DNA of 47,257 nt, taken from Acetobacteraceae bacterium. Its GTDB lineage: Bacteria > Pseudomonadota > Alphaproteobacteria > Acetobacterales > Acetobacteraceae. Positions 28,307 through 33,408 of the stretch are shown here, piece after piece. Below the pieces are notes generated by a model. It was not told the origin of the DNA and made no database searches. It saw only the letters and a list, made by a program, of their open reading frames with translations. The position numbers were made by a program, and so were the translations under genes. Location: NCBI GenBank assembly GCA_030037665.1, contig JASHQG010000152.1, positions 1-47,257 of the forward strand, in the 5' to 3' direction. How positions within the stretch are numbered: the first letter of the stretch is position 1; each line of letters starts with the position of its first letter.

Positions 28307-28822
28307 TCATCCTTTCCTTGGCGCGGTTGGCCATATCCGATCCTCCGGTGGCAGGCGATCCCGATCGTCGGTCAATAGCAGGACCTGTTCGGCGACCTCC
28401 CGCGCCGCATCTCTGACCTCGCGCGACAATTCGTCGCCCGGCGCGAACCGCTTTACTTCGACCGCATAGATCACGCAGAACGGCGGTAGGCATCCCAGTG
28501 TCCTCGCAAGCGCGATCGCCTCCGCGACCCCGAGCCCGTGCGATGAGGCGACACTCCCCGCCGGCACGACTTCGCCCGCCACACAATCCACCCGATGAAT
28601 CGTACCAGCAGGCGCGCCAGACACCGCACCATCGACCAGGATCACGCGGTCCACGCCTGCAATCCGGTCGAGCACCTCCGCAGCACCGCCGTCACATTCT
28701 GCAACCAGCACATCCTCCGGCAAGCGCCCATAGAGCAACCGGGCGACCAGCCGTCCGACGCCGTCATCGCCGCGGTCCGGGTTACCGACGCACAGCACCA
28801 GCCGCCGCGGCAACTCAGTCAC
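28307..28822 (-). CDS. [NiFe]-hydrogenase maturation endopeptidase (HyaD/HoxW/FrhD family)
   Basis: LVLCVGNPDRGDDGVGRLVA..., ILVDGA and SSHGLGV motifs. Overlaps the large-subunit gene by 8 nt. Confidence 0.85.
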   Translation of the reverse strand: MTELPRRLVLCVGNPDRGDDGVGRLVARLLYGRLPEDVLVAECDGGAAEVLDRIAGVDRVILVDGAVSGAPAGTIHRVDCVAGEVVPAGSVASSHGLGVAEAIALARTLGCLPPFCVIYAVEVKRFAPGDELSREVRDAAREVAEQVLLLTDDRDRLPPEDRIWPTAPRKG

Positions 28823-30104
28823 GCACCATGTCGAGCTTCAGGAAATGCGTCGCGCAGGAGATGCACGGATCGTGGTTGCGTACTGCCTGCTCGCAGAGAT
28901 GCCGGAGGCGGTCATCCGGTTCGTTGAGCCAACCGGCGGCGAATGTGCGCAGGTCATCCTCGATGCTCGGTTGATTCTGCGAGGTCGGAGGCACGATCTT
29001 CGCCTCCAGGATCGATCCGTCCGCATCCACCCGGTAGCGATGATACAGCATGCCGCGCGGTGCTTCTGTCGCAGCCCAGCCAATGCCCGCACGCGGCGGC
29101 GTCTCGACAAACGAATGATCCGGCTCCTCATACGCATTGATGATACGCAGTGCCTCATCGAACGCGTACACGACTTCCACCGCACGGACGACGATGCTGC
29201 GAAACGGATTGTTGCAGGTCGGGCCGAGCCCCGCAGCCTTCGCGGACTGCTTCGCCAGTGGCGAGAGGTGTTCATAATTCAGACTGTAGCGCGCGATCGC
29301 CCCCGTCAGGTACGCCCCGTGCCCAATACGGCGGGAATGCAGAGCGTTGGATCGCTTGACGTGATACTCCTCGAAATTCGCCTCGTATTGCTCCGGGGTG
29401 ATGTCGATGCCCTTGTTCGACACCACGCGCCCTTCATTGAACGGATATTCGCCCGCGCCGCCGAGCGAGACGAATTCGTAATCCCGCGTACAATCGGGGA
29501 AATCGAACCCTGCCATCAGCTTAACGGTCGCGAGCGCCGCGTCCCTCCCGCGCGACAGGCCATCGCCCAGCTCGCGTAATTCGCGCTTCGACGGCGCCCG
29601 GTAGAATCCGCCGACACGCACGTTGACCGGATGAATCTCCCTTCCGCCCAGCACATGCAGGATCTTATTGCCGAGCTTCTTCAAGGCGAGCCCGTTTCGA
29701 ACCAGGTCGGGATGGTCTTTCGCCATCTCCACCGCGCCGTCATAGCCGAGAAAATCCGGCGCGTGCAGCATGTACATGTGCAGCACGTGGCTCTCAATCC
29801 ACTCGCCGCAATAGAGAAGCCGGCGAAGCGCGCGGATTTCCGGCGTGATCGTCACGCCAAGCGCGACCTCCAACGCGTGCACCGAACTCATCTGATAGGC
29901 AACCGGGCAAATGCCGCAAATGCGCGCGGTGATGTCCGGCACCTCCATGAACGAACGTCCACGCAGAAACGCTTCGAAAAACCGGGGCGGTTCGAAGATG
30001 CGCAATTCGGCGTCGCGCACGCGCCCCTGATCGATCACGAGCCGAAGACCGCCCTCGCCCTCGACGCGGGCGAGCACGTCAACCCTGATCGGCCTACGCG
30101 CCAT
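28815..30104 (-). CDS. hyhL: [NiFe]-hydrogenase large (alpha) subunit, group 3b-like
   Basis: N-terminal [11 protein letters not shown] and [10 protein letters not shown]. The C-terminal nickel motif DPCISCATH is followed by a 9-aa extension (FLKLDMVRD) of the kind removed by the endopeptidase. Start at ATG 30104 overlaps the small-subunit stop by 11 nt. Confidence 0.9.
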
Positions 30105-30867
30105 GACGCGAGCTTTCTTCGTTGAACGCCCCAATGCCGGCGTTGAACGTACGATAGACGCGCTGCAAATCGCGCCGATCCGCGCCATGCTCTGCAAGTT
30201 TGCGGCTCAGCGAGACGGTATTAGGTGTTTCCTTCGGTCCATAGCATCCGTAGCAGCCACGGTTGTACGAAGGACAGATTGCGCCGCAACCGGCATGCGT
30301 CACCGGTCCCAGGCAGGATTGCGCACCCCGTACCAGAACGCACACCGTGCCGCGCGCCTTGCATTCCATGCAGACGCTGTGCGGCGGGATGTTCGGTTTG
30401 CGACGATTGAGGTTCGCGGCAAGCACTTCCACCAACTGGTGCTTGTTGATCGGGCAGCCGTGCAGCTCGAAATCCACGTTGACATGTGCGCTGATTGGCG
30501 TGGAGGTGGCAAGTGTGTCGATATACTCAGGATGCGCGTAGACGATATTTGTGAACTCGCGTACATCGCGGAAATTGCGTAGCGCCTGGATCCCACCGGC
30601 GGTGGCACAGGCGCCGATGGTGATCAGCATACGTGACTGGCGACGCACCTGGTGGAGGCGTTCGGCGTCGTGCGGCGTGGTAACCGATCCTTCCACCAGA
30701 GACACGTCGTATGGGCCTTTCATCACGCCGCGTGTCGCTTCCGGAAAATAGGCGATGTCGATCGCGTCGGCGACGGCGAGAAGCTCGTCTTCGCAGTCGA
30801 GCAGGGAAAGCTGGCAGCCGTCGCAGGAAGCGAATTTCCAGACGGCGATCTTGGGTTTGCGGGTCAT
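30094..30867 (-). CDS. hyhS: [NiFe]-hydrogenase small (delta) subunit, NuoB/20-kDa-like
   Basis: [24 protein letters not shown]..., GACATAGG, and Cys clusters for the medial and distal FeS ([27 protein letters not shown]). SD GGAGGG upstream. Confidence 0.9.
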
Positions 30868-31843: not shown

Positions 31844-32288
31844 AGACGTCCAGCATCTGAAGCCGCGTTGCCTGCAAGCGTTGCACTAACACCGGGAGGA
31901 AACGCTTGAGGATCTCGTAGCCCATGTCGTGGTCCTCCTCGCACTTGTCGCGCAGACAACGCGCATCCAACGCGATCGCGCGTGTCAGTTCTGCCGCCCG
32001 CGCGTCATAGCCCCAGCGATATGGCGGCAGCAGCCAGCTCAGACCGACGACCTCGCCCTCGCCCAACGTCTCAAACACCACTGCGCGGTGGCCGGGAGTG
32101 ACCACTTCGAGTGCGACGCGACCATGTCGCAGCAAATAGATCCAGTCGGCCTCATCTTCAGCGTGGAACAAATATTCGTCCGGCCGGAACACTGCGTTTT
32201 TCGCACATCCGGCGGCGAGTTCGATGAACGACCGTCCGAGGTCATGGAACAACCGATGTTCGGCCAGGATACGCTCAAGACCCTCCAT
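31827..32288 (-). CDS. Stand-alone cyclic-nucleotide-binding-domain protein (153 aa, no HTH)
   Basis: [50 protein letters not shown]...[12 protein letters not shown]... is a cNMP-type beta-barrel followed by a single C-helix. Its ATG lies 14 nt inside the 3' end of hyhB, and its stop lies inside the annotated 5' end of hyhG. Confidence 0.8.
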
Positions 32289-33408
32289 CAGTGCCTCCCG
32301 GCGCGTCGCCACGGATGGCGCGCACCTCTTCGGTGATGTCGATGCCAACCGGGCACCAGGTGATGCAGCGGCCGCAGCCGACGCAGCCCGACGTGCCGAA
32401 CTGGTCAACCCAGGTCGCCAGCTTGTGCGTCATCCACTGCCGGTAGCGCGAACGCGACGACGACCGCACGCTGCCGCCGTGGATGTAGGAAAAATCCATG
32501 GTGAAGCAGGAATCCCACCGCTTCGTCCGTTCCGTCGCTCCGGTAAGGTCGTTGGCGTCGGATACGCTGGTGCAGAAACAGGTTGGACAGACCTGCGTAC
32601 AATTGCCACAGGTCAGGCACCGCGCCGCGACATGGTCCCACCGCTTGTGCTCGAGGTTAGCCAGCAGCAGGTCGTGCAGATCGTCGGACCGCATGTCACG
32701 CCCCATACTGGCCGCGGTCTGCGCGCTGATCTGTGCCGCCCGATCATGGTCGCGCTGTTCAGCTGGGCGATGCGGCAGACGCGCCAGCAGAGCGGCGCCG
32801 CGATCCGTGGCGGGCTCCAGCAGGAATTCGTGCGGGTCACCGACGAATTCGGTCAGCGCAATGTCGTAGCCGGACGCGGCGCGCGGGCCGGTGTTCATCG
32901 ACACGCAGAAGCACGTCCCGCCAGCCTCGGCGCAGTTCACCGCGACAACGAAGACGCTGTCGCGCCGGGCTTTATAGCCGTGGTCGACAAACGGACCTTG
33001 CAGGAACACGCGGTCCTGGATTGCGATGGCATGCAGCTCGCACGACCGCACGGCCAGGAACGCGAGCCGCTCCGTGCTCTCGGGCGGAGTGGTGACGTGA
33101 ATTGCGCCACGCCCGTCATGCTCTGCGCGCCAAAGAAGTTGCAACGGCGGATGCAGGAAGCGCTTCCATGCATGCGGCCCGACCGCATAGCCGAACAATG
33201 CAGCGTCATCGCGCCGCGCCACGCGGTAGTGGCCGCCATCCTGTTGGTCGGTCCAGCCGGCTGGAAGGTCGTCCGCCGAGTCTACGTCATCATAGACGAT
33301 CGCCTCGTCGCGCAGCCTCGGACCGAGGACACGGAATCCATCGCCTCGCAGTGCAGCGATCAATGCTTCCAGCCCGTCCCGGGTGATCACGCCCGGCTGC
33401 TGTTCCAT
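32275..33408 (-). CDS. hyhB: Hydrogenase beta subunit: 4Fe-4S dicluster protein (AsrA/HydB-like)
   Basis: [16 protein letters not shown] and [15 protein letters not shown]. Start set at ATG 33408 ([12 protein letters not shown]...), preceded by GGACAGAGG. The 120 upstream codons of the track ORF are Arg/Cys/Trp-rich and not protein-like. Confidence 0.8.

Follow-up and report, generated by a model that had tools for sequence, protein, structure and literature searches.

An operon for a group 3b-type [NiFe]-hydrogenase on the minus strand of a contig from an Acetobacteraceae bacterium (Alphaproteobacteria; GenBank assembly GCA_030037665.1, contig JASHQG010000152.1, positions 1 to 47,257) carries an additional gene between those for its two diaphorase subunits, beta and gamma. 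This gene lies at 31827..32288 of the window, that is, the whole 47,257-nucleotide (nt) stretch analysed, and encodes a protein of 153 residues with the fold of a cyclic nucleotide monophosphate (cNMP)-binding domain. It is most likely a real, widespread, conserved and uncharacterised accessory component of bacterial group 3b hydrogenases, of the kind represented by HoxI in hydrogenases of group 3d. According to the reading favoured here, its product would be a dedicated fifth accessory component of the bacterial 3b enzyme with a HoxI-like regulatory role, and we place the probability of this reading as a whole at roughly 0.6, a figure weighted to the claim that the protein is a subunit. That it is physically associated with the hydrogenase appears quite probable from gene order, gene fusion and evolutionary rate; that it works specifically as a HoxI-like site of NAD(P)H-dependent activation or regulation is a tentative proposal, made by analogy.

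The position of the gene is the first line of evidence. An earlier note on this DNA had described six minus-strand genes in the order beta, cNMP-fold protein, gamma, delta, alpha and endopeptidase, with the second of them overlapping both of its neighbours, and all six open reading frames (ORFs) were found where it had placed them, with their family assignments confirmed. Reading of the sequence gives an overlap of 14 nt between the end of the beta gene and the start of the cNMP-fold gene (32275..32288, minus strand): the 3' end of beta reads GGC ACT GAT GGA GGG TCT TGA, with its TGA at 32277-32275, and contains the ATG of the cNMP-fold gene at 32288, ahead of which lies a Shine-Dalgarno sequence, GGGAGG, at 32299-32294. 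At the other end, the TGA of the cNMP-fold gene at 31829-31827 follows the gamma ATG at 31843, giving an overlap of 17 nt (31827..31843, minus strand) in which the gamma start is embedded in the Tyr149-Gly150 codons (TAT GGC). The same arrangement was followed through a genome collection, in which 80 loci from Alpha-, Beta- and Gammaproteobacteria, Chloroflexia, Armatimonadota, Blastocatellia and Actinomycetota encode a relative of the 153-residue protein. In 79 of them, which represent at least six phyla, the gene is flanked by beta on one side and by gamma on the other, and delta, alpha and usually the endopeptidase come after gamma, a recurrence that goes far beyond chance and shows that the arrangement is no local oddity. 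The exception, an orphan gene in a metagenome-assembled genome (MAG) of Actinomycetota (L079, 5900-6447) flanked by TetR, PEBP and DprA genes, retains directly upstream a relic of 30 residues of the beta C-terminus, and thus represents a decayed operon and not an independent context.

Both overlaps recur among these loci. Of 78 loci, 42 have a distance of exactly -14 from the beta stop to the cNMP-fold start, and the others, save visibly broken assemblies, fall within -11 to +27, which bears out the tight coupling that the earlier note had read from the window alone; the gamma start overlaps the cNMP-fold stop (by -17, -23 or -4) in most related loci, including a distant locus of low GC content (L232), and both overlaps of the window are found again on a Rhodococcus plasmid (L082). 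At Tyr149, where the gamma start is embedded, 48 of 76 loci use TAT, as compared with 44% of the remaining Tyr codons; this is suggestive only, the loci not being phylogenetically independent. The protein also keeps pace with beta and gamma in its evolution: in comparison with the window proteins, the median identity of the cNMP-fold protein is 60%, close to that of beta (63%) and of gamma (59%), while that of the endopeptidase is much lower (46%), and the divergence of the cNMP-fold protein tracks that of alpha (rho 0.81). Four plasmids (H1-H4, from Burkholderia thailandensis, B. savannae, Paraburkholderia phytofirmans and Pandoraea vervacti) carry the same trio of 4Fe-4S, cNMP-fold and FAD/NAD(P) proteins at 49-62% identity.

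A second line of evidence comes from proteins in which the cNMP-fold domain is covalently joined to others. A profile search of 1.84 billion representative proteins returned 427 proteins at E <= 1e-30, among them one of 542 residues (P0271) in which a beta subunit (Fer4_22 at 269-363) continues into a cNMP-fold domain (cNMP_binding at 422-507), with only about 14 residues linking the end of beta to the opening helix of the domain. This fusion gene is present on three contigs from three assemblies, at 99.9% and 96.9% nucleotide identity (2 and 51 mismatches) and without gaps, so that the fusion is real and under selection; it belongs to an uncultured lineage of low GC content (49%), in which the stretch with the fusion gene and the genes after it lies at 2924-5393 of L232 and 1739-4199 of L233. 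On both contigs that are long enough, the fusion gene is followed by a free 153-residue paralogue, 48% identical to the fused domain, and then by gamma with a 17-nt overlap. In the manner of a Rosetta-stone protein, the fusion is evidence that the domain may work attached to beta, the second free copy suggests that two copies act per beta-gamma unit, and together they speak for a protein that would dock physically, as a pair, on the diaphorase module. Near-obligate synteny, a rate like that of beta and gamma and the in-frame fusion thus fit a stoichiometric partner better than a regulator gene, as the earlier note had supposed. Apparent single ORFs of beta and cNMP-fold protein at two other loci (L172 and L220) turned out to lie in different frames, hence not to be fusions, and a protein of 408 residues (P0158) was an out-of-frame artefact of high-GC sequence.

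Covalent tandem relatives with two, three or five cNMP-fold domains also exist (P0121-P0126, P0132, P0135 and P0174), and they keep the GWSWLFPP..W and RLQATR motifs. Their loci (L085, L235 and L236) lie outside hydrogenase operons where the context is visible, one beside efflux genes of the RND/CusB type and one beside N_methyl/SASA genes; they were therefore rejected as evidence of an association with hydrogenase and are retained only for what they say about a paired unit. A separate observation concerns a divergent protein of 156 residues (P0260, at L238:4001-4471), whose gene directly follows those for a GltD-like NADPH oxidoreductase and for the alpha and beta subunits of a 2-oxoacid:ferredoxin oxidoreductase (OFOR). 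No relatives of P0260 were found in the genome collection, so this context is confined to one contig; it hints that the module may accompany other Fe-S/NAD(P)H enzymes.

The enzyme to which the protein would belong can be assigned with the profile and PDB scores, motifs and gene order on which the class call rests. The alpha subunit contains RICGIC at residues 61-66 (29907-29924), corresponding to the N-terminal RxCGxC motif, and DPCISCATH at residues 412-420 (28845-28871), corresponding to the C-terminal DPCxxCxxH motif and followed by a tail of nine residues, FLKLDMVRD. Its NCBIfam scores are 287 bits for ShyA and 249 for HydA, as against 138 for VhuA and FrhA, and in the PDB it comes closest to two enzymes of group 3b, that of Thermococcus kodakarensis (5yxy, 233 bits) and SHI of Pyrococcus furiosus (9nez, 231 bits), with entries titled Mvh (174 bits), F420-reducing (146 bits) and NAD-reducing (139 bits) well behind. 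Genes for an AsrA-like beta and an AsrB-like gamma subunit stand upstream of delta and alpha, as group 3b requires. The operon is accordingly classed by sequence as a group 3b-type [NiFe]-hydrogenase, as the earlier note had proposed from its gene order, the best family and PDB matches being Pyrococcus/Thermococcus sulfhydrogenases; since alpha scores below the cut-offs of the archaeal equivalogs, it would belong to a distant bacterial branch. The archaeal 3b sulfhydrogenases (P. furiosus SHI, 9nez/9nf0/9e15, and the T. kodakarensis enzyme, 5yxy) share the order beta-gamma-delta-alpha with the window but consist of four subunits and have no cNMP-like chain in the solved entries.

How regularly the gene accompanies such enzymes was determined by the survey of neighbourhoods that the earlier note had proposed, starting from large subunits. 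With the Rhodococcus large subunit as query, 66 actinobacterial loci were collected, 36 of which carry the gene, in Rhodococcus, Nocardia, Streptosporangiaceae and others; in all sampled loci of Mycobacterium, Mycolicibacterium and Amycolatopsis it is missing and beta is directly followed by gamma. In Actinomadura (L131, L148 and L151), the order is cNMP-gamma-delta-alpha-endopeptidase-beta, which means that the link between the cNMP-fold gene and gamma outlasted a rearrangement that moved beta, and in Pseudosporangium (L197) the gene stands directly upstream of alpha, with beta-gamma-delta divergent. A phylum-diverse survey, whose query was an alignment with the P. furiosus large subunit as its first sequence, yielded 80 scattered loci, 68 of them complete. 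The gene is present in 41 of these 68: the order is beta-cNMP-gamma in 33 and cNMP-beta-gamma in seven, the latter in Chloroflexota and Planctomycetota (L164, L180, L182, L186, L196, L199 and L202), with one other arrangement. The remaining 27, without the gene, include those of Thermococci, Odinarchaeota, most Bathyarchaeia, Nitrospira, Mycobacterium, some Acidobacteriota, Bacillota and Sedimentisphaerales. Across both surveys, the gene lies in the operon and on the same strand in all carriers except the rearranged Pseudosporangium locus. Two loci labelled as archaeal, one from Ca. Terraquivivens tikiterensis (L167) and one from a Bathyarchaeia MAG (L230), have beta-cNMP-gamma, unlike the other archaeal loci sampled; lateral transfer or mis-binning are possible explanations.

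When the protein itself is considered, PF00027 is its only Pfam domain, at residues 34-118 and with 48.9 bits against a cut-off of 27.5. No helix-turn-helix (HTH) domain of the HTH_Crp type was matched in it by Pfam, and its C-helix runs to the end of the protein at residue 153. At E <= 1e-3 the protein has 2876 homologues, the nearest being proteins from Acetobacteraceae MAGs at 84-91% identity; among the 120 homologues listed, nearly all have 151-155 residues, PF00027 is the only Pfam domain and no HTH was seen. An AlphaFold2 model built from an alignment of 117 sequences (predicted local distance difference test, pLDDT, 92; predicted template modelling score, pTM, 0.86) comprises an N-terminal helical pair, an eight-stranded barrel, a short helix at 83-86 and helices at 109-118 and 120-150; a first run on a shallow alignment (24 sequences of at least 63% identity) gave a pLDDT of 50 and was discarded. 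Foldseek matched the model to cNMP-type domains only, with the stand-alone cNMP-binding-domain protein Gmet_1532 (3mdp) at the top, followed by the sensor domains of CRP and GlxR. The probability is 1.0 for CRP, GlxR and CNG domains, and the query-normalised template modelling (TM) score is 0.72-0.79 over about 140-150 residues for Crp/Fnr-type sensor domains and 3mdp. The description as a barrel with a C-helix and no Crp/Fnr-type HTH, made before any of these comparisons, is thus upheld. The best PDB match by sequence is Cmr of Mycobacterium tuberculosis, a weak one at 31 bits.

The 153-residue protein therefore has its fold in common with Gmet_1532 and with the sensor domains of Crp/Fnr factors, such as E. 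coli CRP, M. tuberculosis CRP and Cmr and Corynebacterium glutamicum GlxR, but differs from these factors in the absence of an HTH, in the replacement of the Glu and Arg-Ser that contact cAMP and in the location of its gene inside an enzyme operon. In an alignment to E. coli CRP based on a hidden Markov model (HMM), the glycine of the phosphate-binding cassette is retained (G82). At position 83, which corresponds to CRP Glu72, the four commonest residues are W, L, V and I (109 of 117 members); CRP Arg82 corresponds to the variable position 93, which is Gly in the window and Arg in 17 of 117; and CRP Ser83 falls into a gap. The Gly-Glu and Arg-Ser/Thr contacts of functional cyclic-nucleotide receptors (Glu72, Arg82 and Ser83 in CRP) are thus not present as a set. 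Since they are lost, canonical binding of a cyclic nucleotide is unlikely, and the label "cyclic-nucleotide-binding" under which the earlier note had introduced the protein is probably a misnomer.

The cassette is replaced by a strongly conserved, aromatic and proline-rich family signature, G-[WL]-S-W-L-x-P-P-Y-R-W-x-[FY]-D-A-R-A (residues 82-98; 31995..32045, minus strand), which is among the most conserved stretches in the 117 diverse members. R113 and G123-Y124 are conserved as well, as is the C-terminal end of the C-helix (residues 137-150; 31839..31880, minus strand) with R137-L138...R142...D147-x-Y149, its residues R137, L138, R142, D147 and Y149 being at least 85% conserved across the family, Actinobacteria included. 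All of these are kept even in Rhodococcus, at 37% identity. The conserved elements correspond to the cassette, hinge and lid of the fold, and may form either a new ligand site or a docking face. In CRP, the C-helix is the dimer interface.

A functional model for such a protein is provided by HoxI, a homodimer of cNMP domains that sits on the HoxFU diaphorase module of the group 3d hydrogenase of Cupriavidus necator and is needed for the activation of the oxidised hydrogenase (SH) by NADPH, for which it provides the site (PMC3702609, PMC3189943). HoxI is readily lost at high ionic strength or on purification (PMC3189943) and is optional among related enzymes, being absent from the SH of Hydrogenophaga (PMC12809855). 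Like the window protein, HoxI of C. necator (Ralstonia eutropha) H16 is a small protein consisting of a cNMP domain only (167 residues; pHG1 locus H16_RS31960), is encoded in the operon of a soluble NAD(P)-linked [NiFe]-hydrogenase (hox) and lacks the cassette arginine. The two nevertheless share only 21% identity (pairwise BLASTP, E 3e-5), and the HMM of the 3b family scores HoxI at 35 bits, as compared with 26 bits for E. coli CRP. HoxI lacks the SW..PPY.W signature and keeps the Gly-Glu of the cassette; its gene comes last in the operon, after the endopeptidase, whereas the 3b gene sits among the diaphorase genes; and its partner is the Complex-I-like HoxFU, in place of an AsrA/AsrB-like beta-gamma pair. 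Judged by these differences in sequence and context, the window protein is not a HoxI orthologue, and the likely relation between the two would be either that the same fold was recruited independently or that they split very long ago.

The 3b gene itself has been remarked upon before, and the statement in the earlier note that no function is assigned to such a protein was overstated, given both these reports and the HoxI precedent. In a Frankia 3b cluster (synton-4, Francci3_4499), the gene between the diaphorase genes is called a "small transcriptional regulator" (PMC11879354), in Rhodococcus equi the equivalent gene (WP_013415449) is called a cNMP-domain protein (PMC13332983), and in the methanotroph "M. 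acidophilus" 29 it is labelled "HoxI" (PMC12319191). These papers annotate the gene only, and a literature search found no survey, structure or experiment on the 3b-cluster gene; the survey of its distribution, the fusion and the analysis of the pocket are added here.

Taken together with the HoxI precedent, the observations can be arranged into a mechanism for the favoured reading. The protein would be translated along with beta and gamma and would bind to the diaphorase module that these two form, most likely in two copies and close to the C-terminal end of beta; we infer its status as a subunit in this organism, as well as the dimer stoichiometry, from the relatives described above. It would there present a CRP-type sensor fold without the residues that hold a cyclic nucleotide, and its remodelled pocket and C-helix end could offer a site for a different small ligand or a docking surface. 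By analogy with HoxI, the complex would thereby gain a regulatory or activation site through which the state of the pyridine-nucleotide (or thiol redox) pool is coupled to the activity or the reactivation of the enzyme, both the nature of the ligand and the effect on catalysis being suppositions of the model. A wider and more speculative generalisation, which we regard as possible but doubtful, is that most bacterial 3b hydrogenases, unlike the four-subunit enzymes of Pyrococcus and Mycobacterium, are five-component complexes in which a pair of CRP-fold sensors has given up cyclic nucleotides for another ligand, be it a pyridine nucleotide or some other redox metabolite, and gates or reactivates the flow of electrons between NAD(P)H and H2, and that this module, recruited independently of HoxI in group 3d, also occurs as tandem dimers and beside other Fe-S/NAD(P)H oxidoreductases.

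Several observations weigh against an accessory subunit with a HoxI-like role. The gene is a frequent (about 60%) but dispensable component of 3b operons, and 3b function as such does not depend on it, since Thermococci, Nitrospira, Mycobacterium, Amycolatopsis and others lack it. In the solved P. furiosus SHI entries, a PDB sequence search found no chain resembling the 153-residue protein among the alpha, beta and gamma chains. When beta and gamma were searched for residues or indels that go with the gene, the signals were only weak and were confounded by phylogeny; they include a beta C-tail whose median length is 24 residues in carriers and 19 in the other loci, and differences at beta positions 354-364. 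Some members of the family stand outside hydrogenase operons altogether, namely the tandem forms and the one after the OFOR operon. Finally, the similarity to HoxI is at the level of the superfamily only, which makes the functional analogy a lead and no test.

Among the alternatives, the one that best survives, and still rather unlikely, is that of a structural subunit without ligand, a pseudo-receptor that would stabilise or oligomerise beta-gamma without sensing anything, for instance by bridging two protomers through the C-helix. The loss of the canonical cNMP contacts agrees with such a role, the residues that are conserved best could just as well make up a surface for contact with another protein, and the beta fusion and the tandem relatives point to a paired architectural unit. 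On the other hand, conservation is concentrated on the cassette, hinge and lid, that is, on the ligand site and the allosteric apparatus of the fold, which would be unusual for a mere scaffold, and many 3b enzymes assemble in the absence of the protein.

An assembly or maturation factor for the diaphorase module, which would insert Fe-S clusters or flavin, or hold beta until gamma binds, and be absent from the mature enzyme, seems improbable. The gene is embedded in the operon and coupled to beta and gamma, and the only maturation gene that the operon otherwise carries is that for the endopeptidase, as likewise reported for the Frankia 3b cluster, with no hyp maturation genes anywhere in the 47-kb window. 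Since HoxI itself comes off readily during purification (PMC3189943), a loosely bound protein could be mistaken either way. A permanent in-frame fusion to beta is hard to square with a transient chaperone, however, and the evolutionary rate equals that of the structural subunits; to our knowledge, moreover, the cNMP fold has no chaperone role.

A slim chance is left for a thiol redox switch in the clade of the window, in which Cys28, Cys111 and Cys116 (with His120) would form a disulfide or metal site reporting O2 or oxidative stress. Of the 79 sequences in the set of proteobacterial type, 78 have Cys28 and Cys111 and 65 have Cys116, and the full triad is found in about 52 of the 117 diverse members; the cysteines are missing in Rhodococcus and many other members and do not strictly co-vary. 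Being this patchy, they cannot be the core function, and a thiol or metal site would at most be a clade-specific addition. The least probable alternative, a free-standing signalling protein or regulator that binds cAMP, cGMP or another signal and acts in trans (titration of a transcription factor would be one way, as the Frankia label implies), can appeal to the PF00027 match above threshold, to the many sources that name the CRP/FNR family and to Cmr as the closest PDB sequence, but is the weakest because the homologues listed have no DNA-binding domain and one lineage has the protein fused to beta, to which the missing equivalents of CRP Glu72 and Arg82/Ser83 and a gene wedged with overlapping frames between two structural genes in dozens of lineages can be added.

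Few hydrogenases are as widespread in bacteria of soils and sediments as those of group 3b, which are invoked for fermentative H2 production and for keeping the redox balance under hypoxia. What is known of their biochemistry and structure comes entirely from enzymes without the gene, those of Pyrococcus/Thermococcus (SHI) and of the Mycobacterium lineage. If the protein is indeed bound to the enzyme as a subunit for sensing or activation, typical bacterial 3b hydrogenases possess a point of control that has not been studied, which could explain recovery from O2, cofactor preference or directionality, and which would be relevant to the H2-driven regeneration of NAD(P)H with 3b enzymes. Should the wider generalisation to five-component complexes hold, the module would be a general plug-in sensor of redox state for soluble electron-transfer enzymes. 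Thanks to the beta-cNMP fusion and to the many cultured carriers (Rhodococcus, Burkholderia, Nocardia and Frankia), the question is directly testable, and the plasmid-borne trios of Burkholderiaceae are convenient experimental systems.

The other genes of the operon, all on the minus strand, conform to the class assignment. The beta subunit (32275..33408), the HyhB/HydB-like and AsrA-like 4Fe-4S protein of the diaphorase module, matches Fer4_22 of Pfam at 112 bits and ShyB/HydB/AsrA of NCBIfam at about 130 bits, with the beta chain of P. furiosus sulfhydrogenase 1 (9nez_B) as best PDB match. The gamma subunit (30986..31843), HyhG/HydG-like and AsrB-like, binds FAD and NAD(P) and has a 2Fe-2S site according to its matches (Pfam NAD_binding_1 and DHODB_Fe-S_bind; NCBIfam AsrB, 187 bits, and ShyC, 152 bits; PDB 9nez_C). 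They are followed by the delta or small hydrogenase subunit (30094..30867; Pfam Oxidored_q6, NCBIfam ShyD/HydD), the alpha or large [NiFe] subunit (28815..30104; Pfam NiFeSe_Hases, in addition to the ShyA match given above) and the hydrogenase maturation endopeptidase (28307..28822; TIGR00072, 104.5 bits; Pfam HycI). Delta and alpha overlap by 11 nt and alpha and the endopeptidase by 8 nt, which leaves a spacer of 118 nt between gamma and delta (30868-30985) as the sole gap in the operon; in related loci, this spacer ranges from about 10 nt up to 1.4 kb (L024 and L025). A scan of 27600-34600 for promoters and terminators gave nothing above shuffled expectation. The window otherwise holds ordinary housekeeping and transport genes. 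Directly upstream of the operon lies a gene for a luciferase-like (LLM-class) oxidoreductase (33876-34900, minus strand), apparently split over three frames, which is either a pseudogene or the result of a sequencing error.

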